A stretch of 26,498 nucleotides of DNA, from positions 1-26,498 of IMG/VR virus record IMGVR_UViG_3300032675_000120; one strand, written 5' to 3'. Position numbers and translations under genes: made by a program. The notes beneath the pieces were generated by a model, which made no database searches, had not been told where the DNA came from, and saw only the letters and a program-made list of their open reading frames with translations. This document shows positions 3,619-23,843 of this stretch, piece after piece; position 1 is the first letter of the stretch, and each line of letters starts with the position of its first letter. This stretch comes from a virus. Its lineage: Duplodnaviria; Caudoviricetes.

Positions 3619-3620
3619 GA

Positions 3621-6292: not shown

Positions 6293-9200
6293 TTATTTGC
6301 TTGGCTTTTGGTTTGCTGACCATTCCTTCATGAATCCGTTCCAGGCGGGCATGGTTTCATTCAAAATGTTCATCCGAAGGCTCTCTGGGACGCTTGCGTC
6401 AGATGTCAGTGATTGCATTTTTTTGTCTGCCCTGGTTATCTCGGCATTTGAATAGTGTGCGCTTTGGGCAAGGTCTAGAAGTTCGTGGGCGTCTGGTTCG
6501 TAACTAAAGGAAAGGCCGTGGTCGATTCCCAAAAGTCGCTCAGTGCCGTCGTGTTGAAAAACCATGACGTTTCCGACGTTGCGGTCAGGGTTGCCGATTG
6601 CTTCATCGAGGAACTGGACTCGTGCCATGTCTGTCTGAGCCTTTGCGCCCATTGTCTCGGCCACTTCCGACGGGTCAAGGTCTTCATCAGTGCTGATTAC
6701 CTTTCCGTCAACGAATGGGCTAAGGACATCGCATCTTCCGCTGGGGGTCTTTTTGATAATTACAGCGTCACGGACTGGGGCATCTAGCGCCTTTCCAATC
6801 TTGGAGGCTAGAACTTCTTTGTCCGCATCCTCCTGGGTCATGCCGTGCTTGATGATTCCGATGGAGCCGTCTGCCAGTTCGACTTTGGTAAAACCAGTGT
6901 TTTGGACGCCACCAAGAATCTTTTTGTTACCCAACTTTTTGGCAACCTCGGTCGTCTTCAGAGCCTGAAAACCACCAACTTTTTCATATTGGTTTCCGTG
7001 AAACTCATGCCCCGGCTTGTCGCCCTTGGTGATTTTTTCTGCCTTCTCACGCTCTAACATCGCCTTGTAGTGGAGTTCATTTGCGCCGTCAAAGTCGCCC
7101 ATAAGTTGGGCAATCTTTGCGTCTTCACGTAATTCCTCTGCCTCGACGAGGTGTTTATTGGGCTTCGCCTTTTCAACACCGGGCTCTTTTGCATCCTCTT
7201 CATCCCACTTAACAACGCTGGGGTTTACAATGACAACTTCGTCATTTTGCTCATCCCCGAAAATCCCGCCACCATTGTGGTGAATAACCATTCCGTCGTA
7301 GCCATTTGCTTTTAGCCATTCTGACTCTGGTTCGTTTGCAATTTCGTCTGGGAGGTCTTTGCTGTCAATCAATTTTGCCGATGGGCTAATTGTTCCTGAC
7401 ATGACATGTGGCTCGGTTGGGTTTTCAGTTCCATAGCCGTTTGCATAGGCGTGTGCCATGTCGTAACTGCTTGTCATGTAGAGAGCATCTCCCGATGTCC
7501 CTCGACCGATTGAGCCGTCGAGGGTCGCTTGGCGACCAGCGGAACTTGTCACGCCACGATAGACACGTATGCCCCCGGTGTATTGATTGCCATGAAAAGC
7601 ATGTCCAGCAACGTCACCTTTTTGAATTGTTTTTTGCTGAAGGTATACGTTCGTGTAACCAGCCGATTTCGATTGACTGACAACAACGAAATCCCCACTT
7701 ACAATTTGCTCGTGGAAACGGGCAACGCCCCCGTATTGGTTTGTGTCAAGTGCTTTGGTTCCTGCGGGAAGGTGAAGTATTACTTTCAAATTGCTTCTAG
7801 GCGTACTGTATATTTTATAGCCTTCTCTTTTTGAAGCAAAATCTCTAGCAACGCTCGGCTTGTCAGTAAATGAAGCAAGTGTCATTTTCAGTTCTTTGCC
7901 AATGCCGTATTTTTGTTCGAGTTCATTTGGTGGAACGCTCACACCCGAAAACAATTCCGACTTTGATGGCGGTGCGTTTAGAACTGCGTTTTGCAGTTGC
8001 TGGCTCCATGAATCGCTTAACTGACGCCACTTATCAGTGTTGTCTGTTATAGACCAAGCACGAACCAATCTTTGTACGGGAATTTCTTCTCCGCCCTGAC
8101 CTGCTTCATACTGATTTCCGTGGAAAACGTGCCCCTCTACATCGCCCTTAGCGATTTCGATATTTGGGTTCTTAACTGAAAGTGAGGCAATCTCGGCGCA
8201 TTGTTGTGGCGTCCAAGAAGAACTGTTCCAAACGTATCCGTCTTCACCGATTTGACCCGTTGGTGTGGTTGTTCGACCAATCGCCTGGTGATAACCCTCG
8301 GCGCCTCGACCAGCGGTCGCTGTTACGCCCCAGCCGTTTTCGCTTGCGTATTTTGCCAGTTCATACTGAATGGCCGTCGCAGCGCCAGGCACTTTATTGG
8401 TTGAGCCCAATTCAGGGATGTAGACGTTCCCCTTGGCATCGGTGTTTCCAATTCTCATGATGGCGCAGATTTGGTCGTTCTTGTCTGTTGCGACAATCAT
8501 CTTTCCGCCACTCGACATAAAGTCGTTAAGCGTATCTTCCATCATTCTGTAACCGTTGGTGATTCGAAGAACTTGCGTCTTCATCTCTGGGTCGGTTGTG
8601 TTTTCAAGTTTCTTTTCTGATGAGGCAAGGGCTCGGTCAATCTTTGCTGCTTGACCCTTGGAGTAGTCGTTTTCGCCACCCTCGCCCTTACCAACGCCCC
8701 AAAGGGATGGGAACTTATCGTAGGAATCTTGACTGCTCTTGCAATCGTAGAAGGTTACTTTGCCACCCTTACTAAAAAACTTGCTGGCGGAGTCGGTAAT
8801 GAACTGCTTGGCGTCTGGTGATACTGAGCCTCCACTTTCGCCAGTCTCATATTGGTTTCCGTGGAATGGATGTCCTTCAATATCGCCCTTTTGGATTGTG
8901 GCGTAATTCTCTATTTTTTGGAACTTGTCAATAAGAGATTCCAAATTGGCCATCATGTTGTCAAACTTGTCCGACATACCGATTGTGGTAAAAATGCCAC
9001 GAAGGGTTTCCAACTTTGGCTTCAGAATCAAAAGGCTTTCGGCGTTTACTCCGTGGTTCCAAAGTTGAGAAATCAACTCAGGTGATGGTTCACGAAGCCT
9101 GAAGTTACAGAGTGCGTGGTCAATACCCACAATTCGACCATCTGTTGCGAACATAAGGTTCTTAGGTCGTCTGTCGGAGTTCGCTGTGAGGTAGTCAAAT

Positions 9201-10318
9201 AGGCGAAGCGAGGCACCTTGGTGGTTGTCTGGTACATCGTCCCCGCCACGCTCTTCGCCCGATTCTCCGAGGATATAGGGCATGATTACGGTTTTTGCGT
9301 CAGTTGATGAGAAAAGGCAGTCACGGACGGGGGCGTTCATTACTGCGCCAACACGGGATGCTAAAAACTCTTGGGCTGCTAGGACTTCGGCCTTGTAAAG
9401 GCGCCCGGTCTTGTTTCCGTACCAGTCCTTCATTTGCTTTTCGATTCCACGGGAACCGTCGGCAAAGTCGACGTAGGTGAAGCCGTTGTTCTGGTTGCCC
9501 TTGAACTCTCCTTCGAGCGGTGCCCTTCGAACTATGTCCGTATTGGTGAAGGTTTGGAAGTTTGGCTGGAAGATGCCCTTCTGAACACCCACGCCAAGAT
9601 ACGTCATCTTCACAACTCCGCCCTCGTCAGAATCAATTCTGAACGATGAGCCTGATGGTAAAACCAGTTCTGACTCATTTTGCAAGATTCCAATTGCATT
9701 GCTTCCTGCGGGGACGGTGATTTCTGCCACTGCTGGAATCGCCAGACTGCGAGAAAAGTTTTCGGCTACGGGTTGCCTGAGAGACGTTGACACAAATCCT
9801 TTGTCCGTGAATATATCGCCAGAACTAAGTGTGTTGTTGTTCCCCTTGTTCGCCCCCATGTTGAATTTGTCCACGCCACGAAAAACGACAGCCCCCGTTT
9901 TTAAAGTATTAGACATAATCGCCTTTTGCATTATGTCCACGGCGGGTGCCTTACCGCTTGGGTACTCACCCGTTCGAAGCCCGGTGTTGATGTTTTGGAA
10001 ACCGCTCACTGTGTATGCGGTAAAAGCGTTCTTTTCGGCACTTGTAAGGTTTGAGTCGGCTGGGGTCATGCCACTGCCAACTTGGTCGGTAAAACCAGTG
10101 CAGTTCTGACGTATCCAGTCGTAGGACTTTAAGACGCCATCCCACTCGTCGCTCTTTTGCCACGGAAGTATTTCAGGACGTTCCAAAGTAGCGGTTCCAC
10201 CTTCGCCCCCCGTGTACTGATTACCGTGGAATTCGTGACCTGGGGTGTCACCCTTGGAAACCGTTTTGGTAAAAACAACGTCGCCTGCTTGCCAGACGAA
10301 GCGGTTACTTGTCTTCAT
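6293..10318 (-). CDS. Six-domain effector polyprotein: ART (VIP2/Alt-like), kinase-like, GNAT, ART-like, ART-like, kinase-like
   Basis: Domain motifs in order: VFRG...FVSTS...ESE; DYLTANSDRRPKN...GIDH; VYIPELGS...GAATAIQYELAKYA; LFSG...LASFT...HEQ; VYRG...LYMTSS..MAHAYA...GYDG...DEVV; DEAIGNPDRNVGN...GIDHG. Five KGD..GH.FHGNQY motifs lie at domain starts. ATG 10318, overlapping the upstream gene end, is preferred to 10351. Confidence 0.85.
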   Translation of the reverse strand: MKTSNRFVWQAGDVVFTKTVSKGDTPGHEFHGNQYTGGEGGTATLERPEILPWQKSDEWDGVLKSYDWIRQNCTGFTDQVGSGMTPADSNLTSAEKNAFTAYTVSGFQNINTGLRTGEYPSGKAPAVDIMQKAIMSNTLKTGAVVFRGVDKFNMGANKGNNNTLSSGDIFTDKGFVSTSLRQPVAENFSRSLAIPAVAEITVPAGSNAIGILQNESELVLPSGSSFRIDSDEGGVVKMTYLGVGVQKGIFQPNFQTFTNTDIVRRAPLEGEFKGNQNNGFTYVDFADGSRGIEKQMKDWYGNKTGRLYKAEVLAAQEFLASRVGAVMNAPVRDCLFSSTDAKTVIMPYILGESGEERGGDDVPDNHQGASLRLFDYLTANSDRRPKNLMFATDGRIVGIDHALCNFRLREPSPELISQLWNHGVNAESLLILKPKLETLRGIFTTIGMSDKFDNMMANLESLIDKFQKIENYATIQKGDIEGHPFHGNQYETGESGGSVSPDAKQFITDSASKFFSKGGKVTFYDCKSSQDSYDKFPSLWGVGKGEGGENDYSKGQAAKIDRALASSEKKLENTTDPEMKTQVLRITNGYRMMEDTLNDFMSSGGKMIVATDKNDQICAIMRIGNTDAKGNVYIPELGSTNKVPGAATAIQYELAKYASENGWGVTATAGRGAEGYHQAIGRTTTPTGQIGEDGYVWNSSSWTPQQCAEIASLSVKNPNIEIAKGDVEGHVFHGNQYEAGQGGEEIPVQRLVRAWSITDNTDKWRQLSDSWSQQLQNAVLNAPPSKSELFSGVSVPPNELEQKYGIGKELKMTLASFTDKPSVARDFASKREGYKIYSTPRSNLKVILHLPAGTKALDTNQYGGVARFHEQIVSGDFVVVSQSKSAGYTNVYLQQKTIQKGDVAGHAFHGNQYTGGIRVYRGVTSSAGRQATLDGSIGRGTSGDALYMTSSYDMAHAYANGYGTENPTEPHVMSGTISPSAKLIDSKDLPDEIANEPESEWLKANGYDGMVIHHNGGGIFGDEQNDEVVIVNPSVVKWDEEDAKEPGVEKAKPNKHLVEAEELREDAKIAQLMGDFDGANELHYKAMLEREKAEKITKGDKPGHEFHGNQYEKVGGFQALKTTEVAKKLGNKKILGGVQNTGFTKVELADGSIGIIKHGMTQEDADKEVLASKIGKALDAPVRDAVIIKKTPSGRCDVLSPFVDGKVISTDEDLDPSEVAETMGAKAQTDMARVQFLDEAIGNPDRNVGNVMVFQHDGTERLLGIDHGLSFSYEPDAHELLDLAQSAHYSNAEITRADKKMQSLTSDASVPESLRMNILNETMPAWNGFMKEWSANQKPSK

Positions 10319-11993
10319 TCGCTTCACCCAATGCACCCTGAATGTAGGCAACGCTTATTGGTTGGATGTGGTCGGTCGAACTGCTTGACTCATCTTCGTT
10401 TTCAAAATTTGCCTGGGTATCGGGTAGGAGGACATGCTCTGCGGTGTCCAAGTAGCCCCAGTCCTGAGCGCCTTGCTTGAACGGTGGGTTTTCGTACTTT
10501 GTAATCTGTGATTCGGCTGGAGAGTGTGTCGGAGCGACAGACATCATGTAGGCGGTCTTGGCCTGCTGGTCTTGCTCGCCCGCTTTTTCTTCCAAAATCC
10601 GTGCATTGTCGGCGCTGTGAGGGTGGTTTGATGAGCGTTCATGGTTAGCAGCGTCCCGAAATTTAGAAGCAGCGAACTGATGTGCGATTGTCGCTGACTC
10701 CCACTTGCCCAATTGACGAAGTTGGTCGCCCTTCATGGCAGATTCTTGGGCACTATCGGCTGAGTGCTTTGCCGGTGCTGAAAAAGTTCCAAGCGGGTCG
10801 TAGTTTTTCGTCATCTGGTTTTCCACGACCGGCGTTATTTCGCACTGGCAGTTGGGGTGCAACGGTGGCTGAACGTCGTCGCCCATGTCATGGACACCTT
10901 CTTCCGCCTCGCATTGCTCGCAAGCGGTTTCCGTGCAAATCCAATTAAATTGGCTGATTCCAGCCTGGTCGTAGACCCCCAGAATCCCAGCGTTGTATGC
11001 CCTTACGGATTCGGTGAGGAGAATCATGTTGAGACGGGCGGGGTTGTTGACTAGGGCATTTATTTGGCTCGTCACATCCCCAATGTCTGCTCCGCTGATT
11101 ATGCCCTGTTGGATTGAGGTGGCGATGAGTGAAAGGGTCGTCTTATCCAGACCTTTAAGAATCTGAGCCTGATTCTTCATTAGGCCGTCGAGTGCTTTTT
11201 GGGCGTCTGGATTGGAAAAACCAACTTGCCCCGCACCCGCCAAAACGCCAGCATTTCCAGATTCGAGGTAGAGACTCGTCAAAGCCTCTGCCATTGGCCC
11301 TGAGTCGATGGTGATTGAGTTGTTTACCGCATTTTGAGCGACGCTGGCGATTGTATTTGGGTCTGTTGAACCGTTCAGTTTCTTGTTTGCCAAGGCAAGG
11401 GCGGTGGCAACTCCTGCGATTCCGCCGACAAGTGCTGAACTCATTTGAACGTGGTGGGAAGCAACAACTCCCGCAATGACGCTATTGAGAATCCCGCCCT
11501 TTTTTACTTCTTCATTTTGGTCAAGGGCGCTTTTTTCCAATGTGGCCGTCTTTTGGTATTTACCGCCACGACGCTTGTATTCTTGTACGACCCAGCCGTT
11601 GGCGACCGCTGAAGGGTAGACATCAAACTTGGCCTTTGCCTCTGTTTTTACCTTTTCATAGAGGTCTTTGTCTGTGGGCTCGCCTTTTCGCCCAGAAAAA
11701 AGCCCCGTGTAATCAGGCTCTTCTTCGGTTTTTTTTACTTCCCCCTCGGCCTTACCTGCTGGTTCTCCAGTGGCGTCAATGTGGCGAAGTTGGCAGAATC
11801 CCTCTGGATTGTCGATGTGCTTGCCTGCGATTGCTACGCAAGCCTCAAAATCCCCAGGTGAGCCCCAATTTATCTGGCCATCCGCTCCAGCGTTGTACCA
11901 GTCAATTAGCCCCTGGGCGTTACCTGCCTTGTGAATCTCTATTTCACGAGCGTTGGACAACCATGCGCTGATTTCATTGTCTGCTCTGCTCAT
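10305..11993 (-). CDS. MuF/SPP1 gp7-like minor head protein with extra N- and C-terminal domains
   Basis: RLNMILLTESVRAYNAG...W...ACEQC...PPLHPNCQC is the Phage_Mu_F signature. N-terminal modules are WGSPGDF..C...PEGFC.LRH and LYEKVK.EAK.KF..YPSA.ANGW.VQEYKRRGGKY. Confidence 0.85.
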   Translation of the reverse strand: MSRADNEISAWLSNAREIEIHKAGNAQGLIDWYNAGADGQINWGSPGDFEACVAIAGKHIDNPEGFCQLRHIDATGEPAGKAEGEVKKTEEEPDYTGLFSGRKGEPTDKDLYEKVKTEAKAKFDVYPSAVANGWVVQEYKRRGGKYQKTATLEKSALDQNEEVKKGGILNSVIAGVVASHHVQMSSALVGGIAGVATALALANKKLNGSTDPNTIASVAQNAVNNSITIDSGPMAEALTSLYLESGNAGVLAGAGQVGFSNPDAQKALDGLMKNQAQILKGLDKTTLSLIATSIQQGIISGADIGDVTSQINALVNNPARLNMILLTESVRAYNAGILGVYDQAGISQFNWICTETACEQCEAEEGVHDMGDDVQPPLHPNCQCEITPVVENQMTKNYDPLGTFSAPAKHSADSAQESAMKGDQLRQLGKWESATIAHQFAASKFRDAANHERSSNHPHSADNARILEEKAGEQDQQAKTAYMMSVAPTHSPAESQITKYENPPFKQGAQDWGYLDTAEHVLLPDTQANFENEDESSSSTDHIQPISVAYIQGALGEANEDK

Positions 11994-12028
11994 AAAGACC
12001 TTTAAAAGTGGGGTTAGAACTACCCCCT

Positions 12029-12053: not shown

Positions 12054-12060
12054 CGAGAAA

Positions 12061-12574: not shown

Positions 12575-12604
12575 ACTATACAACTGTACGGTACTAGAAG
12601 TCAA
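12575..12604 (-). promoter_or_regulatory. Sigma70/SigA-type promoter for the two small ORFs
   Basis: Minus strand TTGACT-N18-TATAGT, overlapping the end of the upstream toxin-like gene. Confidence 0.65.
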
Positions 12605-14426
12605 ACGACTTCTTTACGGCCGGGGTTCCAACCGTGTTGGCAAAAGGCGGGATTGGGACGGTTGCCCACATGCTTCTCATTTGGGCTTGACCCTGAGTGT
12701 ATTCTTCCGAGTTCGGGTCTTTTGTCCGTGTCGCTTCGTAGAGCGGGTGAACTTCGTCAATCATGGCGAGCGATGATGGCGTGTGGAACTGCAACTCAAA
12801 CAATTGGTTTGTAACGGAGTCTTTAAAGACGCAGTTCATTCCACGGTACGAACTATCGGGGTTTTCGTTGAAGTAGTTCTTGTCCTTGCCCGGCACTAGT
12901 TCAAAGCCCTCTGAACGCATGGATTCAAGGGTGTCTTGAACGCCCTTCGCCCACTTATCGTCAGGGTAGGAGATGGTGTATCGAAGTGCGTCACCGATTC
13001 CTGTTGAAGCCTCTTCGATTGCCCCTCTTGGTGTGTCAAAAACGTCTTTTGAGTCAAGCAAAATCTTTCGAGTAAGGCTTTGGACTGTCTTTAAGCGGAA
13101 TTCTGGCTTAATTGGTGTTCCACCAGTTTGGGCTGCTGCGCTTTGGATGGCACCAGTGATTCCACCAAACTTACCGTCACCAGTCTCCGCCTTCGAGGAG
13201 CGTGTGTAAAGCATCTTTGCGATTGAACGTGCGTAGCGATAGCGACTGCTGTAACTGCTTCCTCCGCCTTCGCCAACCGTGTACTGGTTCCCACGAAATG
13301 CGTGACCTGCGGACTCGCCCTTTTCAACAGGAAGTGCTGATTTTGTTGTGTCAAAAGTTTGGTCGGTCGGTACCGTAGCAACTTTTATATCCCTGGTCGG
13401 CGTAACGCCTGATGGCGTAATACTGCTAGAAGTTTCCCTCAAAGTTGGACGGGCGTTTGTCCAGTACGCATACTGGTCAGGAAATATAAGACCGCCACGG
13501 TTAAGTGCCATCATGTAGTCACGACTGGGCTCGTAGAGGCCGTCATACCCAGCAATTGCTGGCGTAGTGCTTGCTGACTTTGAACTGTCTCCCCAAAGCG
13601 CAATGCCTATAGCGTTTGCTTCATTTTGCGTGTAACCATTGTCTACAAGCATTTGCTTCAATCCGAGGCTGTCTGCTTCAGACTTACCGCCAACTGTTTC
13701 ATCGCCAAGCATTGTCATTTTTGCCATGCCCTTTGAGCCAGCAACGTAAACATTGTCTGGGCTGTCAAAGCGATAGCGGAAGATTCCACCCTCACTGCTA
13801 TTTGTGGCGTAGTCGTGTGGGGCAGAGCCTAGTTTTGACGATGAATAAAAAGCAGCACCCCATGCAGGGCCACCGTAACGAGGGGTGTCTCCATACATAA
13901 GGTTCGACATTTTTGCTGAAAGAGGCTGAGAGCCACTGCGTGTTGTCAATCCTGAGAAATAGCACGGGCTTGTCATCTTGTCGAACTCTGATGTCGGCAC
14001 TACCTTTGGAAGAGCCGTGCATCCAATCATTCCAAGAATCGCAGCGTTTTCGGTATCCGCAGTTCCAACCTTTGCTTGCTTTTCAAGATTTTGACGATAT
14101 GACTCTGGGTCGGTCAAAATCTTTGTCATATTTTGGTTGAACCTATCTACGTGGTCTGCTGGAACGCCAAGGAACTTGGAAATAGTCGAAGAGACTTCCA
14201 CGGCTTTTTGTATTTTGGGGTCTAGCGCTGGTGCTGATTCTTCCCTCCCGCCTTGCGAAGAAGGAGTTTTTGAACGGCTCGCACGTTCAGAGGGGAGCGG
14301 GTTTCCATTTTCGTCGTACTTGACCCATTGGTTTCCGCCGAAACCGTGCCCCGGCTTTCGACCAGAGCCTTTTCCGCCCTTTGTTACCTCTAGAAACTTT
14401 GCTATTGAGTTTGGAATGTTTGACAT
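12594..14426 (-). CDS. Two-domain effector: ART-like domain plus RelA/SpoT-superfamily (Tas1/Apk-like) nucleotide pyrophosphokinase
   Basis: C-terminal half has FRLKTVQSLTRKI, GDALRYT, SYRGMN and FELQFHT...HPLYE. N-terminal half has YFSGL...YGGPAWGAAFYSS...HDYA...GYDG. A repeat motif separates the two. Confidence 0.8.
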   Translation of the reverse strand: MSNIPNSIAKFLEVTKGGKGSGRKPGHGFGGNQWVKYDENGNPLPSERASRSKTPSSQGGREESAPALDPKIQKAVEVSSTISKFLGVPADHVDRFNQNMTKILTDPESYRQNLEKQAKVGTADTENAAILGMIGCTALPKVVPTSEFDKMTSPCYFSGLTTRSGSQPLSAKMSNLMYGDTPRYGGPAWGAAFYSSSKLGSAPHDYATNSSEGGIFRYRFDSPDNVYVAGSKGMAKMTMLGDETVGGKSEADSLGLKQMLVDNGYTQNEANAIGIALWGDSSKSASTTPAIAGYDGLYEPSRDYMMALNRGGLIFPDQYAYWTNARPTLRETSSSITPSGVTPTRDIKVATVPTDQTFDTTKSALPVEKGESAGHAFRGNQYTVGEGGGSSYSSRYRYARSIAKMLYTRSSKAETGDGKFGGITGAIQSAAAQTGGTPIKPEFRLKTVQSLTRKILLDSKDVFDTPRGAIEEASTGIGDALRYTISYPDDKWAKGVQDTLESMRSEGFELVPGKDKNYFNENPDSSYRGMNCVFKDSVTNQLFELQFHTPSSLAMIDEVHPLYEATRTKDPNSEEYTQGQAQMRSMWATVPIPPFANTVGTPAVKKSFDF

Positions 14427-16399
14427 TAGAGTTGATGCCTTCCTCTAAGAGAAACTGCTCGCATTTCAGTTGCCTTTGCGTTTTTTAGGCCGTCAAGAGC
14501 GGACTTGTAGTCAGATTGTGCTGATGAGTTCCCCGATGCAACTGCCTGGTCGTACAGTTTTTGATAGGAAGTAATTGCGTTCTCAAAAACATTTCTACTG
14601 ATTCCGCTTCCATCATTTCCCGCACCATTTGTCGCAATGTATTCGTCAACCTTACTTGCAAAGTAGGGGGCGGAAACCTCCAAGAGATTCTGCGTTGCTT
14701 GGTCGTACTTTGCATTTACGTTGACAATTTTGTCAATGTTTTGAGCAATTTTTTGGGCGCCGTTAGTCGTTGTTAGGTCAAAGTTCCTAAATGAGGATTT
14801 TGCGGTTTCGTAATTACTTAGCGCTTGATTCGCTGATTGAAACCTATCGGAAATGCTTGCGCTTGAATCTTGTGAGTTTGCAAGTGCCGAGTCTCCGTCT
14901 GCAACGTACTTGTCTGTCTTGATTAAATTCTGAACCCCAGAAAGGCTTTCTTGCAGTGACTTCGCTTCCTGGAACGCACCTTGTCGGTAGATTCCGAGGC
15001 CAGAAACAAAGTCTTCTGAACCAGAGTTCATGTTTCTTGCATCAAGACCATCCACGGCTTTTGATGCTGAATCAAGAGCCGTGGATACAAGGGTGTATTT
15101 TGCCGACGGGTCGCTTTCGCTTTCAATTGACGGCAATTGTGATTTTGCTTTGTCAAGCGAAATAAGCCCTTGGGCATAACTCCTTGCGGAGTCGAGAGCA
15201 TAAATCCTGCTTTGACTGTCATTCATTATTTTTGTTGTAAGCGTCGATAATGTCGGGTCATTTGTCTTGTATTTAATGCTTTGGGCTGTGTCGTACAGAC
15301 TTCTTGCTGAGTCAATGGCGCTTTGTCCCAACGCTACAAATTTATTAATATCAGTTGCGGAGGAAAGATTTTTTATTGCGTCATCACTTGATGATTGAAG
15401 TGATGGTAGGTTTGCGATTCCAGACTTGACCGAAGTTTCTTCGGCGCTTTGCCTCAGACCGTTCAACTTATCGCTAACAGCCTTCTCATCGTCAGTCACG
15501 GAGTATCGTCTTTGCGGGGTGGCAAGACTTGTGGCCTTCAACGCTCTAATCGATTGTGTAAAAAGCCTTGACGACTGGTCCAGAAGAGCCCCCCTATTCG
15601 AGTCGTTTGAGGGGTCTTCTGCTTTGGTGGCTAGTTCATTAGCAAGTTTCTCGTATCCCTGTGAAACGGACGCTAATTGATTGTCTGCCGTTGTTGCTTC
15701 TGCTTTTAAATCGTTTGATTGATTGCGATAGTTGAGCGCTGTTTGATTGTCCCCGGCGACACGATAAGTTGCAGAAATGAAGTCCGCTATTTTGGACGCA
15801 CTTTCCTCACTGCCCGATGAGAGAAATTTTACAAGGGACAAAGGACTAACGGGGTCTCCGTTTTGACCCTTTTCGATTTCTTCGGAAGCCGATGCCTTTT
15901 GGTCATTAACTGCTGAAATTGATTTTTGCAATGCGCTCTGGACTTCTGCCATTCGTGGCGCACGGATATTTCCACTCTTGTCAAGAAGGGTTCCGCCAGT
16001 TCCAGTAAGGGACTGAAAGCCTCTGTTTATTGCTTTTATTTGGCTATCACGGCTTACGCCTAAAGTGGCTCTTTTAATTTGTTCTTTTTGTTCATCTGTT
16101 TTAGCAAGAGCAGTTGCTTGGTTAAGCACGTCCTTTGCATCAAGGGATGAGTGAACCATTTGCGCAACGTTACCGACTGTTCGGTCTCCATTCCTGGAGT
16201 CAATTTCTTTGTTTTGGTAATAAGACTTACTTCCGAGTTCGGCTGCCGATTGGATGGCGTCATCAAACTTTTCGTATTGATTTCCATGGAAGGCGTGACC
16301 GGCCACGTCGCCTTTTTCAATCAAGGTAGGCGTGGTTTTGGTAAAAACAGGACTAATCCAGTTTTGGATTGCCTTTGTTATTGATTCGGAAGTAGACAC
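14426..16399 (-). CDS. Large alpha-helical protein with an N-terminal repeat motif; putative internal head/ejection protein
   Basis: 657 aa, Ala/Ser/Gln-rich with repeated amphipathic helices and no catalytic motif seen. IEKGDVAGHAFHGNQY lies near the N-terminus. Confidence 0.65.
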   Translation of the reverse strand: MSTSESITKAIQNWISPVFTKTTPTLIEKGDVAGHAFHGNQYEKFDDAIQSAAELGSKSYYQNKEIDSRNGDRTVGNVAQMVHSSLDAKDVLNQATALAKTDEQKEQIKRATLGVSRDSQIKAINRGFQSLTGTGGTLLDKSGNIRAPRMAEVQSALQKSISAVNDQKASASEEIEKGQNGDPVSPLSLVKFLSSGSEESASKIADFISATYRVAGDNQTALNYRNQSNDLKAEATTADNQLASVSQGYEKLANELATKAEDPSNDSNRGALLDQSSRLFTQSIRALKATSLATPQRRYSVTDDEKAVSDKLNGLRQSAEETSVKSGIANLPSLQSSSDDAIKNLSSATDINKFVALGQSAIDSARSLYDTAQSIKYKTNDPTLSTLTTKIMNDSQSRIYALDSARSYAQGLISLDKAKSQLPSIESESDPSAKYTLVSTALDSASKAVDGLDARNMNSGSEDFVSGLGIYRQGAFQEAKSLQESLSGVQNLIKTDKYVADGDSALANSQDSSASISDRFQSANQALSNYETAKSSFRNFDLTTTNGAQKIAQNIDKIVNVNAKYDQATQNLLEVSAPYFASKVDEYIATNGAGNDGSGISRNVFENAITSYQKLYDQAVASGNSSAQSDYKSALDGLKNAKATEMRAVSLRGRHQL

Positions 16400-16416
16400 G
16401 GTGTCCGTGCCCCTTA

Positions 16417-17727
16417 CTAATTCTTCAGGCTGTTCGGGTAAAGAAGTGATTCGACGCTAAAAGCAGACTTGCTCATTGGGGCGCCACTTGAATCCTCTTC
16501 TGAGTCATCATTTGACGAGTCATCCTCAGAAGCACCCTCGTTTTTTCCCTCAGCAAGTTTTGTAGCCTTTGCGTTCTTTGCCTTACCCATTGCAACTGGT
16601 GTTGAACTGTCGTCCGATGAGTCGTCCGAAACGGTTCCGAGACCACCACAGTTTGAACACTGGTCGCTGTTGTCACCATTGCATGATGGGCAAAGTACGA
16701 GAAGCGATGCGTCCTTCTTGGTTGGCTTTGATGAGTCGTCAGCAGATGAGTCTTCGTCTGAACTGTCGTCTTCCCAAGGCTTCTTCCATTCAGTCTTTTG
16801 AGCCTTTGAAACCGAAGGCTTTGTCCACTCTTCTGGGAGCATGTCCACAGCGTTCAGTGCTTGTGCCTGACGGATGATGTGGCTCTTGGCCTTGGCGGGC
16901 GATGAAGCACGTCCAACCGACTGGATAGCGTTCTGCAAGTCACCCTTGTTTTCGATTGGGAATGAGCCGTCTGGGAGGGCCTTGCCTGCGTGAGCAAGTT
17001 CCATTCGCTTGGCGTTGCTGAATTCACGCTTCTCTACGCTACGGTTGTTGTCGGCCTCGGTTTGCATTTGGTTAATCTTTCCACGCAAACGACCGGCCTC
17101 TGAAGCGTGAGCCGAGTGGCCCTTCATGTCGCCAGCCTGACGTGCTTCTCCGGCCTTCTTTTCGTGGTCTGATGCAAGTTCTGCAAGACCCTCAATGGTC
17201 GAAGGGTCGCCAGCCTTTTCCAAAGAAAAGTCGGGAACCATTACACCGTTTTGGTTCATGATTTGCGAAGGCTTGACTTCAACGATGTCGTCTTCCTTGG
17301 TTGTTTCGCCCTCTGGAACCGAAGAGTCTTCTTCGACCATCTGGCCGTAACGGTTTGGAATCTTTCCCTTTGCCAGGTCGTTTAGTGAATCGACCGTAGC
17401 CTGTGCGAGGCCAAAAGCCTTGTTCGCAACTGCGAAGTTCTTGTCTGCTTCACGGAAGCCAGCGAGTGCGTTGTTATATGCCTTCTGAAGGGCGTCCTTG
17501 TTCCAAGCGGACTTAGATACTGCCTCAAAGTAAGCAACTTCAGTGGCCTTCATTGTCTCTTCGGCCTTTGCAAGGCGGAACGAAGCGTTGTCGAGGTCGA
17601 CACGGGCAACGCCGAGTGCTGAATTGGCCTTGGCAATCTGCTTCAGGGCGATGTTTACGGTCTCGCTCTTGGCGACTGTTTGCTCAAAGGACACCGTTGT
17701 TGGGTTGCTGTTTGCGACACGAATCAT
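16417..17727 (-). CDS. Head-associated multidomain protein (coiled coil, DUF6582-like module, Zn finger, Asp/Ser tracts)
   Basis: N-terminal heptads; ALPDGSFPI.NKGDLQNAIQSVGRA...HIIRQA.AL...LPEEW; CPSCNG...CSNCGGLG; GAAAGGA RBS. Confidence 0.7.
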   Translation of the reverse strand: MIRVANSNPTTVSFEQTVAKSETVNIALKQIAKANSALGVARVDLDNASFRLAKAEETMKATEVAYFEAVSKSAWNKDALQKAYNNALAGFREADKNFAVANKAFGLAQATVDSLNDLAKGKIPNRYGQMVEEDSSVPEGETTKEDDIVEVKPSQIMNQNGVMVPDFSLEKAGDPSTIEGLAELASDHEKKAGEARQAGDMKGHSAHASEAGRLRGKINQMQTEADNNRSVEKREFSNAKRMELAHAGKALPDGSFPIENKGDLQNAIQSVGRASSPAKAKSHIIRQAQALNAVDMLPEEWTKPSVSKAQKTEWKKPWEDDSSDEDSSADDSSKPTKKDASLLVLCPSCNGDNSDQCSNCGGLGTVSDDSSDDSSTPVAMGKAKNAKATKLAEGKNEGASEDDSSNDDSEEDSSGAPMSKSAFSVESLLYPNSLKN

Positions 17728-17757
17728 TTTGGAAAGTTCCTTTCGTTTCCTTGAAAA

Positions 17758-17782
17758 ATGCTACACCTAGATTTGGAAAATG
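17758..17782 (-). promoter_or_regulatory. Putative phage late promoter
   Basis: Minus strand CATTTTCCAAA-N8-TAGCAT. The upstream 11-mer is identical to the copy at 2482-2492. Confidence 0.6.
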
Positions 17783-17791
17783 GGGTTTTGT

Positions 17792-18241
17792 CTAGCCCTC
17801 GTTGAGCATTGACTGAGCAACACGGTCACGGGCGCTTGGTTCATAGTTAGCAGCACGTTGAGTTGCTTGAACTGCTGGTGCCCAAACATCGTCATCCTGG
17901 GTCTTGCTTGCAGGCATGTTGTAGATTGCGTTCCACTTCTTGTAGGCGAGTTGGTGCAGTTTTGCACCCTTATCGTCCCCACTCGACTGAGCCTTGCTTG
18001 CAAGTAAAGCATGCTGTTGCGCCATTCTCAGGGCGCCTTGCTGGTCATGAGCCGTTGCGAAGAAAGCGCCATCAGAGAGAAGGGATTGACGTGGAGTCCA
18101 TCGGTTTGGGTCTTCCTGACGTACTGGTGCTTTTTCGCCCCCGCCTTGACCGCCTGTGTACTGGTTTCCATTAAAAGAGTGACCAACCATTGCGCCCTTG
18201 GAGACGCCGAGGAGGTTTTCCGTTGAGAAAGGGTTTGACAT
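17792..18241 (-). CDS. Small motif-tagged helical protein
   Basis: 149 aa starting MSNPFSTENLLGVSKGAMVGHSFNGNQY. Confidence 0.75.
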   Translation of the reverse strand: MSNPFSTENLLGVSKGAMVGHSFNGNQYTGGQGGGEKAPVRQEDPNRWTPRQSLLSDGAFFATAHDQQGALRMAQQHALLASKAQSSGDDKGAKLHQLAYKKWNAIYNMPASKTQDDDVWAPAVQATQRAANYEPSARDRVAQSMLNEG

Positions 18242-18243
18242 TA

Positions 18244-18537: not shown

Positions 18538-18552
18538 AATTGTTTCCTTTGA

Positions 18553-19752
18553 TTAGTCGTTCTTGGTTGCTGACTGCTCGGCCTTGACCTCTGCGTACTT
18601 TGCTCGCTTTTGAGCGCAGTCCGCTTCAGAAGTGCATGGAGCATCGCCGTGCATCTTGTGCCAGTTGTCGTGGTCTTGGTCGTGACGCATAACAGTTTCT
18701 AGTGATTCGTTTGCATCCTTTGAAACGGCGGATGAAAGACGGTTGTTAAACATCGTGATAAGGCTTCCGTTGTCCAGTCTTACGGCTGTCTCACGGCTCC
18801 AGTCAACTGGCTTGTATGCGCCTTCAACGTTTGTAGGAACACCGTCACCACGAGTCTTTACTTCGCTTGGGTGAACAACCGTTCCTTCCCTGTTGCTGTC
18901 AACGCCCGAGCCTTCGGAAACACGAACTCGGTCGCCAACTTTGAGGCTTCCTCTTCCGCCGTATGATTGTCCTGAAGTAAACTGGTTTCCGTGAAATGCG
19001 TGTCCCGCTACGTCGCCTTTGGTAAGTGGGTACAGAAGAGCATCGGTGCTAAAAACCGAAGGGGTTGACTTGTTGATTTCGTTGGCTACGTCGCCTTCGG
19101 CACGTTGCTGAACCTTCAGGTCGATAATCTTTGAGCGAATTCGCTGAGCCTCGTTGACGTGGTGGGCAACAGTTTCGGAGTCGCCCTTTGCCTTTGCTTC
19201 TGGGATTGCTTCGTCGTGAGCCTGGGCCGCTTCAAGGTAGGAATTAATCGCACTGTCAAAGTCCTTGTTCATTGCGTACTTGTCGCCGGTCTTTTCTGCG
19301 TTCGCCTTTGCAATCTTGTCTTCCCCCTTCAGAATTGGGAAAAAAAGTTCGTTTGTGCCGAAACCAGAAGACTTCTTGAAAGTAGAAGCGCAGGAGTTTG
19401 GAATTGTCGAAACGTTTGGATTGTTCGATGCGTCAATTGAGTCGTAGTAAGACTTGGCACGCTCGGTTGCTTCAACTGATGAGTTGAAAGCCTGACCAGC
19501 CAATTGGACGTACATGTCACGGTCGGCGTGGTCTGTGCGTGAAACTTGTTCGTACAAGTCCCGGGCAGCAAAGTAGGCGCTTGCTGCGGTTAGGCAGAAG
19601 TCACCGGCGTTCTTCAGGTCGCCATTCTGTGCTGAAATGTTTGCCTGGTTGCAAAGACCATCTGCAATAGAAATGTTCTTTTGCGCCATTGCGGTCAACT
19701 CGTTAGCAGTTGAACCACCGTAGTTCTTTACGATTTGGAATGGGTTTGTCAT
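18553..19752 (-). CDS. Modular protein: helical repeats, repeat motif, SH3/KOW-like domain and His/Cys tail
   Basis: LTKGDVAGHAFHGNQF is followed by LKVGDRVRV...REGTVV...AVRLDNG. Tail HDQDHDNWHKMHGDAPCTSEADC. AAGGAG RBS. Confidence 0.75.
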   Translation of the reverse strand: MTNPFQIVKNYGGSTANELTAMAQKNISIADGLCNQANISAQNGDLKNAGDFCLTAASAYFAARDLYEQVSRTDHADRDMYVQLAGQAFNSSVEATERAKSYYDSIDASNNPNVSTIPNSCASTFKKSSGFGTNELFFPILKGEDKIAKANAEKTGDKYAMNKDFDSAINSYLEAAQAHDEAIPEAKAKGDSETVAHHVNEAQRIRSKIIDLKVQQRAEGDVANEINKSTPSVFSTDALLYPLTKGDVAGHAFHGNQFTSGQSYGGRGSLKVGDRVRVSEGSGVDSNREGTVVHPSEVKTRGDGVPTNVEGAYKPVDWSRETAVRLDNGSLITMFNNRLSSAVSKDANESLETVMRHDQDHDNWHKMHGDAPCTSEADCAQKRAKYAEVKAEQSATKND

Positions 19753-19762
19753 TGGTTTCTCC

Positions 19763-20209
19763 TTATGACAACGAAGCAGACAATTGCCATTGCCACTTGT
19801 TGTGTTGGTCGATTCGGTCTGCGAGGAAGTTCATGATTCCTTGCTGATTTTGTGCATTTGCCATTTGGAAGGCAATGTTTAGGCTTGTTAGAACGACTTC
19901 GTTTGCACTTAGAAGGTCTGGTACAAGAGTTTCCGGCGTGTAATCCGATGGTTGCGAGTCATCAATACTCGAACGTGCCGATAGGTCGCTCATTCGGAAG
20001 GGTGCGTAACCATTTGTTTTGCGGATGCACTCTGCCATTGGGTCAAGGCTTTCCAAAACGTCTTCGTAGATTTCCTCGAACTTGGCGTGCCACTGTGGGA
20101 AGTCCATTCCCGTTACGTTCCAATGGAATCCGTGGGTGCGGTGGTAAAAAACAGTGGCGTCTGCAAGTGCATTTCCCAGTGCCATTGGGAGTGTTGTTGC
20201 TGGGGTCAT
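19763..20209 (-). CDS. dps: Dps / ferritin-like DNA-protection protein
   Basis: HGFHWNVTG.DF..WHAKFEEIYE...DPMAECIR...NFLADRIDQHNK..WQL. The ATG at 20209 overlaps the upstream TGA (ATGA), giving 148 aa. Confidence 0.9.
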   Translation of the reverse strand: MTPATTLPMALGNALADATVFYHRTHGFHWNVTGMDFPQWHAKFEEIYEDVLESLDPMAECIRKTNGYAPFRMSDLSARSSIDDSQPSDYTPETLVPDLLSANEVVLTSLNIAFQMANAQNQQGIMNFLADRIDQHNKWQWQLSASLS

Positions 20210-20820
20210 TGTGCTACCTGCGCTACTGGTTGTTCTGTTGGTGCCGGGGTTGCCGAGTATGAGGGGTCTCCCGTGGAGACACGAACATTGTCGATTGTCG
20301 TAAGGGCTTGCATGCACTTGTCGACAGCGGAGTCGGCTGTTGCACGGGCTGATTCTGCGGTAGTGCGAAGTCCCTGAATCTCTTCCTGGGTCGCATTTTG
20401 CTTTACAGCACGGGCGTAGTCGTGGATTGCCTTGTTCGCAATTTCGCAAAGATTACCGGCGTGGTGAAACATCGAATAGTTTTCTTTTGCTTCATTTCCA
20501 AGGTTTTTGTTCTTGTACCCGCCTGGGTTTTGGAGTTTGCTGGCTGCTTGGGAGGAGTGGTAAGCCGCTTCGTTGAGTTGACGCATTGCTTCGCCGTAGT
20601 CTGAGGTGCGAAGTGCGGTACTTGCAGACATTACGGCTGATTTTGCGCTGTCGAGATTCTGGGCGTAGTTAAATGTTTCCGTGCCCGGGCGTGAATCGTG
20701 TGTTTTACCTGCGCTTACACCGTTGGTGTATCGGTTGCCTCGAAAAGGATGCCCAGGATGCTCGCCCTTAAAGATTGATTCAAACCACGCTGAGATGGCT
20801 TCGCTTGTTGAATCGAGCAT
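20206..20820 (-). CDS. Motif-tagged helical hypothetical protein
   Basis: 204 aa with EAISAWFESIFKGEHPGHPFRGNRY near the N-terminus. Confidence 0.75.
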   Translation of the reverse strand: MLDSTSEAISAWFESIFKGEHPGHPFRGNRYTNGVSAGKTHDSRPGTETFNYAQNLDSAKSAVMSASTALRTSDYGEAMRQLNEAAYHSSQAASKLQNPGGYKNKNLGNEAKENYSMFHHAGNLCEIANKAIHDYARAVKQNATQEEIQGLRTTAESARATADSAVDKCMQALTTIDNVRVSTGDPSYSATPAPTEQPVAQVAQ

Positions 20821-20863
20821 TGGACTTAGACATTTCTCTTCTAGTAGGGCAGTTACTTATGAA

Positions 20864-20888
20864 ATCTTACCTCTATATTTACGAAATG
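20864..20888 (-). promoter_or_regulatory. Putative phage late promoter
   Basis: Minus strand CATTTCGTAAA-N8-TAAGAT. Confidence 0.55.
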
Positions 20889-20897
20889 TCGGTTCGG

Positions 20898-23843
20898 TTA
20901 CTGCGGTGTAGACCCGTCCTCGCCCAGCCCGAAAGACGAAACTCTTTCTTCGAGGTTATTTGCGAATTCCGCAAATTGCAATCGAGAGAATGTTTTAATC
21001 AATTCTGGCGAGACACTCTGGTCTAGTTTTTCCTGCGCTTCAAGCGCCTTGGTGATTTTTATAGCCCTTCGTGCGGACTTTGAGTCAGTGGATGAACTTT
21101 TTTTATTCACTTCCCCGTGCGATTCGCTTGCATATCCCATTTTTTGGGCATAATCGGAAGCGGAACTTAGGGCATCGTTCCAATTCAGCCCAATTCGGTA
21201 GACAGGAAGGTCGAGTGAGGGGTTTGCAATTTTGATTCCAACCGCCCCAGCCCAGGTGTGGTTTCCGTCAATTATGTAGTTATCTTTTGAGATAAGAATT
21301 GGCTTTGTCTGTGGAATCCCGGCCTCTTTGTAGGTGTGGTACATCCATCCGGCTTGCGTTCCTGATATTTGGCCTTGAATCGTCTTCAGGTCTCTTGGGT
21401 CGACGTTCTCTTTTTCCACCGAAACGCCCTTTTCGTTTCTCAGGTAATCAAGGAATCCGTCTCGCTTGCTTGGTGGGATTTGTGGCATATCCGAGCGTAA
21501 GTAGCCCTTGCCATCCCCGCCAAACATTTCCTTACCGTCAACACGAAGTTTGCTGATGTCTGGTTGTCCGTTATCCAGTTCTTGCATCCCCTGGAGGAGG
21601 TTTGGAACATCTGCTTCGTGGATATTTGGGGTTTCCCCGCTTTTCAATTGGTCAGAGATTTTCCCTGCCCAGTTTTTGACTGATTCTGGTGAACCGTCTT
21701 CTGGGGAACTGTAAGAGCCCTCACCACCAGTCCACTGATTTCCGTGAAAGACGTGGCCCTCTACATCGCCCTTTTCCACTCCGACCTCATATGGAATCTT
21801 TGCTTGGTTGAAGGCGTTATTGAAGTCGTTGCTTACGTTGAAGTCGCTAGGGAACCACTTGGGCAGGTAGTTGGGGTCTGCTGTTTTCCAATCCTTGCTC
21901 TTGGCGTAGAACTGTTTTTGTGTTAGGTAGATGTGCGTTCCATCTCCCCTAAAATCAACACGGTCTACAACAAATCGCCCGCCAGTCAATAACTGAGTTC
22001 CAATGTGTTCTGGGTCAAGTGCTGAAAGTTGCGTTCCAATAGTTCCAGCGGGTGCGTGTAAATAAACGGCTTCGTTTGGATTTCGACCATACCGATTTGC
22101 CCATTGGTCGGCGTTTTCGCCAAACCCCGTGCCTTGTTGGTTAGCCCACGATGAAAGGGGCAAGTCCACAGTTTTACCTTCGGCAAACTTCTCCATAAAA
22201 GCATCTTTTGCGCCCGATAACTTGTCCAAAACTAAACCACGCTCAACCTCATTCGCCACGGGTGCAGAGCGTTCGCTAACTGCTTTCATAAAGTTATTAG
22301 CGTCTTGCTTCGCTTGCTGAACTTGTGCGTGGCTAAGTGGTATTGGTTCTACATAGGTTCCGTTTAGGTCTTTCCATTTTACTTTGTCACCAGCACTTAG
22401 TGTTTCACCGCCCATTCGTTTGTTTAGTTCGTATGCAAAAGCACTTTTGCGAACCAAATCTTCTTTGCTTGGCGAACCTAAGTATTCCAACCCCTCAGGG
22501 GCGTATCTAAATACTCCAAAATACAAGTTAGCAAGTTCTTTGGCTTGCCCATCACCAACTTCCCACTGATTACCGTGGAATTCGTGACCTGCGACATCGC
22601 CCTTTGCCAATGCACGATTTATCGGCTCTGCTGATACGCCAGTATCAGTATTAACTTTCTGGTTTGCAAAAATTTGGTCGCCAGTTGAAGTTGGCGCCGT
22701 TTCTCCCCACGAGGCGTAGGTGTCGCTCATTTGCAAGATGGAACGGTCATAAACCATGACATAACCAGAATTGGTATACTTGTAACCGCTAAGTGCGTCC
22801 GAGGAAGTTTCGTTAAGTCCTTCCGCAAGTAGGTCGGCTGTTCCCTTATCAAACCCGTTTTGTTTTAACAAATCGTTAAAGTTTGCCTCTTTGGAAAAGT
22901 TATAGTTTACGCTCCTGCCACTTCCAGCGTTGCTTGCGTCTGGGTTAGACCAGTCAAGCCTCATCTGCAAAAGCATATGGTCTCTAGCGTCGCCACGCTC
23001 GTTGGCGTACTCAACCGCTTCGCTTGGCAACTCGCTGGTGTAGAAGGCTGTTCCGTAAATTCCCCCACCGTATGTTGGGTTGTCGCTGTGCGCAAACCCC
23101 GCAACCACTTCTGCGCCTTTCCCTACGGGCGCTGAAAGTCCAGTAAATAATCTTTGATATTCGTCGCCCTTTGAAAACTCCGACTCACTTACAACCGAAG
23201 GTTTACCTAAGTTGCCGAGCATTGCCATAACTGCTTTCGCAGGGTCTGGCTTTCCGTTGGTTGGAAATTCGGCAAGAGCCTTTTTAAAACCTTCTGGGTT
23301 GCTGATTATTTTGGAAAGGTTTTCCGTGTAGTTTTCTTTTTCTTCTGAATTAATGGTGTGGTTAGACCACTCCGAACCCTCTATAGAGCGGGTTGTAAAA
23401 ACATTATTTAAAATAAAATCTTTTGACCTTGCAAAGGCTTTGCCACTCTCACCATTTTCGTATTGATTTCCATGAAAAGGGTGTCCTGCAACATCGCCTT
23501 TTTTCACCTCATCTTGGCTGTTGAAGTGTGCGACCATTTTCTTTGCCCATGAGTAGCCAGCATCGCCACCCCAAGCGTCCCAAGCGACACGCCCAGGTGA
23601 TGGGAAGCCGTTTTCCCCGGACTTAAACCCCTCGGCCTTTTGGTCTGGTTGGTGGCGGTCGAAATACGCCTTCATACGACGAAGGGTTTTCTCAGAAATA
23701 CCGTGAGCATTTGCGAGGTCGCTTGCCCGCCTTCTTCCGACATTGGTAAAACCACTACCCGCCTGGCCGTCTTTTATCCATTCCAAAGCACGTTTAGCAG
23801 CGGATTGAACCCCACTAGGGGGTGTAAAGGTTTCTCCAGACAT
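20898..23843 (-). CDS. Four-domain polyprotein: head-associated WGG module, ART-like, ART-like, ParB/Srx-like
   Basis: Domain motifs in order: PP..V...AKRALEW...G..RA..LA...RM.AYF.RH...AWDAWGGDAG.SWA; LFTGL...YGGGIYGTAFYTS...AVEYA; ERG...LSSW...TQLL..GRF; DPRDLKTIQ...PILISKDNYIIDGNHTW. Three repeat motifs separate them. Confidence 0.82.
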   Translation of the reverse strand: MSGETFTPPSGVQSAAKRALEWIKDGQAGSGFTNVGRRRASDLANAHGISEKTLRRMKAYFDRHQPDQKAEGFKSGENGFPSPGRVAWDAWGGDAGYSWAKKMVAHFNSQDEVKKGDVAGHPFHGNQYENGESGKAFARSKDFILNNVFTTRSIEGSEWSNHTINSEEKENYTENLSKIISNPEGFKKALAEFPTNGKPDPAKAVMAMLGNLGKPSVVSESEFSKGDEYQRLFTGLSAPVGKGAEVVAGFAHSDNPTYGGGIYGTAFYTSELPSEAVEYANERGDARDHMLLQMRLDWSNPDASNAGSGRSVNYNFSKEANFNDLLKQNGFDKGTADLLAEGLNETSSDALSGYKYTNSGYVMVYDRSILQMSDTYASWGETAPTSTGDQIFANQKVNTDTGVSAEPINRALAKGDVAGHEFHGNQWEVGDGQAKELANLYFGVFRYAPEGLEYLGSPSKEDLVRKSAFAYELNKRMGGETLSAGDKVKWKDLNGTYVEPIPLSHAQVQQAKQDANNFMKAVSERSAPVANEVERGLVLDKLSGAKDAFMEKFAEGKTVDLPLSSWANQQGTGFGENADQWANRYGRNPNEAVYLHAPAGTIGTQLSALDPEHIGTQLLTGGRFVVDRVDFRGDGTHIYLTQKQFYAKSKDWKTADPNYLPKWFPSDFNVSNDFNNAFNQAKIPYEVGVEKGDVEGHVFHGNQWTGGEGSYSSPEDGSPESVKNWAGKISDQLKSGETPNIHEADVPNLLQGMQELDNGQPDISKLRVDGKEMFGGDGKGYLRSDMPQIPPSKRDGFLDYLRNEKGVSVEKENVDPRDLKTIQGQISGTQAGWMYHTYKEAGIPQTKPILISKDNYIIDGNHTWAGAVGIKIANPSLDLPVYRIGLNWNDALSSASDYAQKMGYASESHGEVNKKSSSTDSKSARRAIKITKALEAQEKLDQSVSPELIKTFSRLQFAEFANNLEERVSSFGLGEDGSTPQ

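Follow-up and report, generated by a model that had tools for sequence, protein, structure and literature searches.

A putatively retained peptide tag behind predicted protease sites in candidate effector polyproteins of a lake-water phage

Head-packaged phage proteins and the locus compared

How internal proteins are chosen for packaging into the phage head is understood in only a few models, T4 and P1. Here we compare these and related systems with a 26.5-kb phage contig present in lake-water metagenomes (IMG/VR record IMGVR_UViG_3300032675_000120, positions 1 to 26,498; this whole stretch is referred to as the window), which encodes beside its head genes a series of putative effector polyproteins whose modules share a short conserved peptide, the tag, directly behind a predicted protease cut site. 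In T4 the internal proteins IPI-III and Alt carry a capsid targeting sequence that is cut by gp21 (PMC7411985). As far as the available part of that account goes, the likeness extends, here at the level of sequence only, to a short N-terminal propeptide, its predicted removal by a prohead protease, ADP-ribosyltransferase (ART) cargo and partly dispersed genes. The T4 signal is cut off and discarded, however, whereas the peptide conserved here would remain with the mature product at each site; as many as nine tagged modules are found in one chain, and the tag occurs with several protease families. In addition, gp21 cuts after Glu, in contrast to the PF14550 protease of the window, whose predicted site ends in Lys.

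In P1, DarB has an N-terminal packaging signal (PMC9024508), and DarA-Hdf binds both capsid and DNA and exits with the DNA (PMC12810830). Judging from the accessible portions of these two studies, head-packaged, N-terminally targeted counter-defence proteins that contact the DNA and leave with it may have counterparts here, and two P1-like contigs (G017 and G019) carry the present tag in or beside DarA-domain proteins. Unlike P1, the window has no DarA, Hdf or DarB domain that we could find, and the accessible text of the P1 paper gives no shared consensus for the Dar N-termini.

The polyvalent proteins combine unrelated effectors (ART, kinase, GNAT, RelA/SpoT, 2H, InPase) in one chain, in a head-gene context and with predicted injection (Iyer et al. 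2017, PMC5512222; PMC9503650, both as partially available). The window has at least two unrelated effector domains per chain (ART, two kinases and a GNAT fold in polyprotein A; ART-like and RelA/SpoT-like in polyprotein B) and encodes portal, protease, MuF and capsid beside the polyproteins; by domain prediction its cargo repertoire is that of polyvalent proteins, as given in the available parts of PMC5512222, PMC9503650 and PMC7824862. Processing of polyvalent proteins has been proposed to occur by zincin metallopeptidases or assemblin-like domains, zincin being present in 36% and not obligatory (PMC5512222, in its available part); no zincin match was obtained with Pfam or NCBIfam in the window modules. 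A short inter-module tag like the present one and a cut-site rule go unmentioned in the available parts of the polyvalent-protein accounts (PMC5512222, PMC9503650). MuF-fused polymorphic toxins likewise link variable enzyme domains to head proteins (PMC3482391, PMC7302621, in the parts available), and other contigs encode tagged MuF fusions; the window MuF, unlike these, has neither tag nor detected toxin domain, and the majority of tagged modules are not fused to MuF. No description of the tag was found in the literature searched, subscription journals, bioRxiv supplements and the supplements of the polyvalent-protein papers being outside its coverage. Loading and cutting are already known; the new element is the predicted retention of a per-module tag that crosses protease families.

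The tag and its predicted cut site

The first-pass annotation had reported 13 canonical copies and one degenerate copy of a motif in seven open reading frames (ORFs). A six-frame scan with the pattern K-G-[DEA]-x-x-G-H-x-F-[HRN]-G-N-[QR]-[YWF] confirmed these numbers and placed all 13 exact matches on the minus strand; by chance, G-H-x-F-x-G-N-[QR] arises 0.0005 times per shuffle of the window proteins (2,000 shuffles). The motif splits in two, a likely cut site [ILV]-x-K and a tag of 13 residues, G-D-x-x-G-H-x-F-H-G-N-Q-[YW], which begins at Gly; the Lys, earlier counted into the tag, is part of the cut site. Nor is the variant copy (K-GGKGSG-RKP-GHGFGGNQW, 14325-14381) a decayed one, since it recurs, with 13 K-GGxGSG cases in 7 of 10 contigs. 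The tagged genes and tags of the window, all on the minus strand, are:

6293..10351, minus: polyprotein A (about 1,341-1,352 residues), five tagged modules and one untagged kinase after V-Q-K at residue 258
10214..10255, minus: Lys and tag 1 of polyprotein A, heading an ADP-ribosyltransferase module (PF03496, 1.6e-17)
8849..8890, minus: Lys and tag 2 of polyprotein A, heading a GNAT-fold module (Foldseek GNAT matches; model with predicted local distance difference test, pLDDT, 88.8)
8108..8149, minus: Lys and tag 3 of polyprotein A, heading an ART-like module homologous to polyprotein D module 2
7580..7621, minus: Lys and tag 4 of polyprotein A, heading an ART-PolyVal-like module (PF18760, E 0.007, below cut-off)
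6986..7027, minus: Lys and tag 5 of polyprotein A, heading a HipA/PI3K-like kinase (PF20613, 1e-4; PF00454, 2e-4)
12594..14426, minus: polyprotein B (610 residues), two tagged modules
14325..14381, minus: variant tag K-GGxGSG-xxx-GH-x-F-x-GNQW at the head of the first module of polyprotein B, an ART-PolyVal-like module with a homologue in polyprotein D module 1
13281..13322, minus: Lys and tag heading the RelA/SpoT-like module of polyprotein B (PF04607, E 0.027; NF041399, 1.7e-21)
16274..16315, minus: Lys and tag of a 657-residue protein (14426-16399) without family
18158..18199, minus: Lys and tag of a 149-residue protein (17792-18241), with an F-S-T-x-x-L-L leader ahead
18979..19020, minus: internal leader, Lys and tag in a 399-residue protein (18553-19752)
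20728..20769, minus: Lys and tag of a 204-residue protein (20206-20820), with an I-x-x-W leader ahead
20898..23843, minus: polyprotein D (981 residues), an untagged N-terminal head-associated domain and three tagged modules
23460..23501, minus: Lys and tag 1 of polyprotein D, heading an ART-PolyVal-like module (atlas score 0.90, a lead only)
22563..22604, minus: Lys and tag 2 of polyprotein D, heading a VIP2/Alt-fold ART-like module (atlas 0.95; Foldseek on a model of pLDDT 53)
21732..21773, minus: Lys and tag 3 of polyprotein D, heading a module ParB-like by eye only, unconfirmed by Pfam and PDB searches

Synonymous codon variation between the copies, as previously noted, is seen at all seven invariant positions tabulated; the pairwise DNA identity of the 13 copies averages 70% (52-88%) and the longest identical run is 27 bases. 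No tag lies inside a Pfam-matched stretch, in line with the earlier statement that catalytic cores are spared, and in two structural models the tag is predicted with low confidence outside the folded domain, a weak indication since the other alignment rows lacked tag coverage. The Gly-rich spacer also holds up: residues 14-22 past the first Gly are 27% Gly in 129 tagged genes.

The residues ahead of the tag alternate by whole protein or contig. Apart from the Lys site they read [RK]-x-[LA], x-x-L, E-[FL], x-x-E or [LM]-D, and the tag is unchanged behind them; among 689 canonical tags 512 follow Lys and 177 follow other residues. Pairs of tags within one protein are of the same class in 914 of 1,050 cases (600 when permuted) and, among the 38 non-Lys proteins, in 214 of 301 (92 when permuted). 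Of nine contigs selected because a residue other than Lys precedes the tag, eight lack XkdF (PF14550), three of them at 92-100% completeness, and the ninth has an L-x-K three residues earlier together with an XkdF-like gene. Co-occurrence of the tag with an XkdF-like protease is seen in the Lys clade but not in these eight contigs, where other proteases, namely Mu-like (G013), DUF2213 (G014), phrog_15531 (G015) and phrog_18402 (G012), or P1-like DarA genes (G017, G019) stand; no protease was identified in G011 and in the fragment G018. Because the tag is constant while the upstream residues change with the protease, it does not appear to be read by the protease, and there is a strong case that the cut would fall directly before its Gly. 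Autoproteolysis of the GDPH type was considered and ruled out, as there is no Asp-Pro and the upstream residues track each phage's protease. Closely spaced double tags occur in contig G003 (L226:2470-7607), where a Lys-less tag is followed some 22 residues on by a Lys-anchored one.

The proposal that cleavage follows the Lys gains support from the enrichment of [ILV]-x-K in scaffold and protease, the register being set by the constant tag against the swapped upstream residues. Observed and shuffled counts of [ILV]-x-K-[AGS] are 55 and 8.7 in nine scaffolds (6.3-fold), 26 and 7.6 in six proteases (3.4-fold), 17 and 2.8 in two acidic proteins, 10 and 3.6 in MuF and 13 and 5.8 in the capsid; the portal has no excess (6 and 6.2), and 828 other proteins have 459 and 369. 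The scaffolds of cultured relatives give 7 and 1.4 (Laroye), 8 and 1.2 (Ottawa) and 10 and 1.5 (ValentiniPuff). Six to seven sites are conserved in the scaffold and one directly ahead of the catalytic domain of the protease, a pattern that would be expected of a maturation protease that destroys the scaffold and trims itself. With tags masked, the Lys site is enriched 3.3-5.0-fold in protease and scaffold of five of six XkdF contigs, and 0-2.0-fold in all seven contigs with other sites, none of them at p < 0.05. No measured XkdF cleavage site or cutting rule was found in the literature searched, and no solved relative of the protease was found by sequence. The proteins concerned are encoded in the window as follows:

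25716..26498, minus: portal, 3' part (PF06074, phrog_113)
23853..25541, minus: XkdF-like prohead protease, with a conserved I-x-K directly before the catalytic domain (PF14550, 7e-10)
16417..17727, minus: acidic protein, untagged, 6-fold enriched in [ILV]-x-K sites
10305..11993, minus: MuF protein (Pfam), untagged, with [ILV]-x-K sites and an I-x-x-W leader
1663..2409, minus: scaffold-like protein in which six to seven [ILVM]-x-K sites are conserved (by enrichment and alignment)
169..1164, minus: major capsid protein (phrog_1005, 1.7e-98)

The protease scores 39.4 bits against PF14550, above the curated cut-off of 24, and is thus a member of the family. In its ORF (23853-25541, minus) about 400 residues precede the catalytic domain, among them a Cys-rich segment and long stretches of Ser and Asp; in the Laroye protease the pre-catalytic stretch holds a 2H-like domain that follows a Lys site, perhaps the reason for the 'RNA ligase' labels of those records. 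Residues 1-30 of the scaffold (2320-2409, minus) carry E-x-S-x-x-D-x-P and resemble the last strand of the protease (23853-24300, minus), and in contig G016 this motif follows the protease's G-[FY]-S-I-G-G in one chain. The protease looks to be split: the scaffold, encoded 21 kb away, would supply its last strand, an arrangement that would restrict activity to the prohead; the same layout is present in G002 and in three cultured relatives.

Proposed role of the tag and competing explanations

We propose that an N-terminal leader would bring the precursor into the young prohead, that the XkdF protease would cut after [ILV]-x-K, and that each freed module would carry the tag at the N-terminus so created, the tag there serving retention in the head and exit with the DNA. 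Packaging of the precursors into the head is predicted with considerable confidence and a function of the tag after cutting is fairly probable, whilst the explanation as a whole, in which a leader loads, a protease cuts and a portable per-module tag acts afterwards, has in our estimation slightly better than even chances.

The layout sets the two signals apart, with roughly one leader per gene but one site and one tag for every module. Within the Lys clade, 46 of 67 N-terminal tags have a leader pattern (F-[ST]-T-x-x-L-L-like or I-x-x-W-like) ahead of them, as opposed to 5 of 80 internal ones. In none of 195 proteins does the tag start within the first three residues; leader and site come first, although a Met-Gly start would yield the same free end. 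Internal tags score 44.9 bits (n=613) and N-terminal ones 45.1 (n=101), with five weak copies among more than 700, and a search for near-tags in whole contigs added only one. Because leaders mark first tags while internal tags stay conserved, the leader appears to be needed once per chain, like the T4 capsid targeting sequence or the DarB N-terminus in the available accounts (PMC7411985; PMC9024508), and the tag once per released module; tagged modules are of single-domain size (median 199 residues). Since a separate leader stands before it, the tag, described in the first-pass annotation as a shared packaging or ejection tag, is more likely a post-cleavage signal than a packaging signal. A role after release is further suggested because in other contigs tags sit on modules fused inside portal, MuF and protease genes.

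The best-surviving competitor, which we nevertheless consider unlikely, holds that the tag itself is the loading signal, binding scaffold, core or inner capsid before cutting, and that its copies stem from the fusion of single genes. Satellite genes distant from the head module that carry the tag speak for this explanation, as do the near-invariant His, Phe, Asn, Gln and aromatic residues, reminiscent of a pocket-binding peptide, and the 21 of 67 N-terminal tags with neither leader pattern. One signal per chain would be enough, however, and yet internal copies are conserved like first copies, at positions that lose leaders and keep tags; modules fused to portal, MuF or protease would need no loading signal and are tagged all the same; and, at limited sensitivity, none of 27 window domains followed over 19 contigs is common to all tagged genomes.

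A universal partner such as DNA is favoured for the post-cleavage tag because it crosses unrelated proteases, portals and capsids and no shared domain was found, although packaged DNA can be preferred to a single phage protein only tentatively; DarA-Hdf of P1 (PMC12810830) offers a precedent. Two sibling tags stand behind each phage's own site, [RH]-D-x-x-G-R-[FW] (21 distinct contexts) and GGxGSGNFGHxGRPG (21 contexts), sometimes in one protein with the main tag, and the variant copy of the window looks like a hybrid of the second sibling and the main tag. It is conceivable, if rather doubtful, that several unrelated head types share protease-unmasked N-terminal exit tags, the main one and its two siblings, which would attach the released single-domain cargo to the packaged genome and so pull it into the host. 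Among solved structures the sibling tag has weak matches in two baseplate-hub proteins (E 0.098 and 1.5) and the main tag has no match; a supposed likeness of the sibling to the NF-YA/CCT DNA-binding motif was unsupported by this structure search. R-D-x-x-G-R-F motifs are also present in tape-measure-like proteins of P1-like contigs (G017, L464:1094-3133; G019; L475), and the cultured phage DSL-LC01 has three such motifs in its head-region proteins.

Self-association of the cargo through the tag, forming an inner body or a condensate with a role in organising the head, the enzymes being ejected or not, seems improbable. The tag's content of Gly, aromatic residues, Asn and Gln together with the Gly-rich spacer behind it, a portability that requires no phage-specific partner and the many tagged modules without enzyme family would agree with it, but the strict position after the site and the replacement by two unlike siblings in the same proteins better fit a positional signal. 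Slightly less probable still is a role confined to cleavage, the tag being just the prime-side half of an extended protease site or else a flexible spacer that eases cutting. It does always start directly after the site with a small residue first, yet it does not change with the upstream motif and protease family, of which at least five different ones occur, and sites in scaffold and protease do without it.

High-identity segments between polyproteins end near tags in 49 of 61 cases (9.8 expected) and start near them in 29 of 53 (8.5 expected); modules are swapped at tags. Tag-tag joints with 23-41 letters on the short side are likely derived from other phages. That the tag is mainly a recombination junction for cassette exchange, in analogy to VENN of CdiA and DPxG of Rhs, is the least probable explanation despite this clustering, given that synonymous positions are free to vary (hence the mean DNA identity of 70%), that breakpoints would gather at any domain boundary and that conservation across unrelated phages is at the peptide level; recombination at tags is likely a side effect.

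A number of observations weigh against our proposal of leader, cut and post-cleavage tag. The tag is not basic and the tagged modules are mostly acidic (median isoelectric point 6.1, 68 of 151 below 6), which disfavours DNA binding. Within nine related contigs 25 of 99 tagged genes, with 30 of 151 tags, are found away from the head module, where they form clusters of small genes with one module each, and the tag is absent from all cultured relatives examined. The enrichment of the Lys site is not significant in the XkdF contig G002. In the untagged core proteins of non-Lys contigs, the contig's own upstream motif is clearly enriched in two of seven (3.2-fold), marginally in one and not significantly in four, and the motifs for this masked-tag test were picked after the data were seen. 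The capsid keeps conserved internal [ILV]-x-K sites, which could not be cut without harm and are presumably buried, so the motif alone is not sufficient. Furthermore, the tag-conservation test used proteins retrieved with a tag profile, a selection biased towards strong copies, and contigs and tag pairs are related to one another, so that the counts are not independent.

Predicted cargo, distribution and genomic setting

Enzymatic cargo has enzyme-fold support in 9 of the 14 modules, whereas four show no enzyme and one, polyprotein D module 3, is the ParB-like module whose identity was not confirmed. The nine comprise one clear ART, a GNAT, a kinase, a RelA/SpoT-like module, two VIP2/Alt-fold ART-like modules, related to each other and without an obviously conserved catalytic residue, and three ART-PolyVal-like modules with weak support. 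Among relatives 13 of 89 tagged proteins have a Pfam match; the host-modifying folds (ART, GNAT, kinase, RelA/SpoT) are present, and the 'anti-defence arsenal' of the first-pass annotation would be one reading of them. Of the best 120 database matches 49 have a precomputed family, including ART, GNAT, kinase, topoisomerase IB, ParB, InPase and MuF, and in G002 a MuF chain combines an Acb1 domain with tagged modules of GNAT and topoisomerase type.

A profile built from 83 copies (42 columns) retrieved 2,202 protein clusters (50% identity, E up to 0.001). Counted as DNA patterns, by overlapping tool estimates from partial scans, Lys-anchored tags occur in about 220 stored stretches of the viral collection, non-Lys tags in about 140, and the pattern without upstream residue about 570 times in metagenomes. 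In 596 billion bases of bacterial and archaeal genomes the Lys-anchored pattern had 10 matches, four of them real tags on contigs of metagenome-assembled genomes (MAGs) and six that look like chance; a stricter first pattern had 0 matches there. We scanned 25 loci with PHROGs, 21 from the first 80 metagenome loci listed (long contigs preferred, already-seen ones skipped) and four MAG loci. Head or packaging genes were found at 20, tail genes only at two, an HNH gene only at one and nothing at two, both shorter than 4 kb; rather than being common in unrelated proteins, the tag is at these loci mostly in a phage head context. Satellite clusters of single-module tagged genes lie in G001 (15146-21007), G003 (90011-99334) and G004 (22082-33579), some on both strands around a ParB-domain gene. 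In cultured phages tblastn with a 25-residue tag peptide gave no match, and polyprotein D matched 29 cultured-phage records through its N-terminal domain only.

On the minus strand of the window, portal and XkdF protease are followed by 17.5 kb of large genes, then by a small number of non-structural genes, the scaffold, a decoration-like gene and the capsid. The seven tagged ORFs do lie between protease and scaffold, as first described, but so do non-structural genes: PD-(D/E)XK nuclease, LexA-like, GP88 and transglycosylase-like genes break the head module before the scaffold (2503-6125, minus). A ferritin/Dps-like gene within the cargo block (19763-20209, minus) is kept in four related contigs; it is untagged, as are MuF (DUF5872 and MuF domains only), the acidic protein, the portal fragment, scaffold and capsid. 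A shared element ending in [AG]TAG[CT][AC]T lies upstream of head genes (25573-25595 and 17758-17780, minus) and is a candidate late promoter; among tagged genes it is present at 13 of 24 in the head module and at 3 of 9 satellites, and among other genes with a gap at 12 of 186. Among the datasets listed as containing the window contig there was none of RNA.

The host is probably an actinomycete, because relatives of the window phage encode WhiB and the closest cultured capsids and proteases are those of Arthrobacter and Microbacterium phages. The Arthrobacter phages Laroye and Ottawa and the Microbacterium phage ValentiniPuff are 53-70% identical to the window in the protease domain and 49-54% in the capsid, and have the same Lys-site-rich scaffold, with no tag in the head regions compared. 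In the head region of G002 (L222, about 9083-9556) a gene judged type IV pilin-like by eye suggests a proteobacterial host for that phage.

The predicted position of the tag on the retained side of the cut, once per module, makes head retention and exit of the cut products testable. By the tag, thousands of protein clusters, mostly without family, become candidates for injected proteins that modify the host or counter its defences, and the residues ahead of the tag predict the cutting rule of several uncharacterised prohead proteases. If the main tag and its siblings do form a family of exit tags, they would constitute a general, swappable injection signal, by which injected counter-defence proteins could be read from sequence and new cargo delivered.

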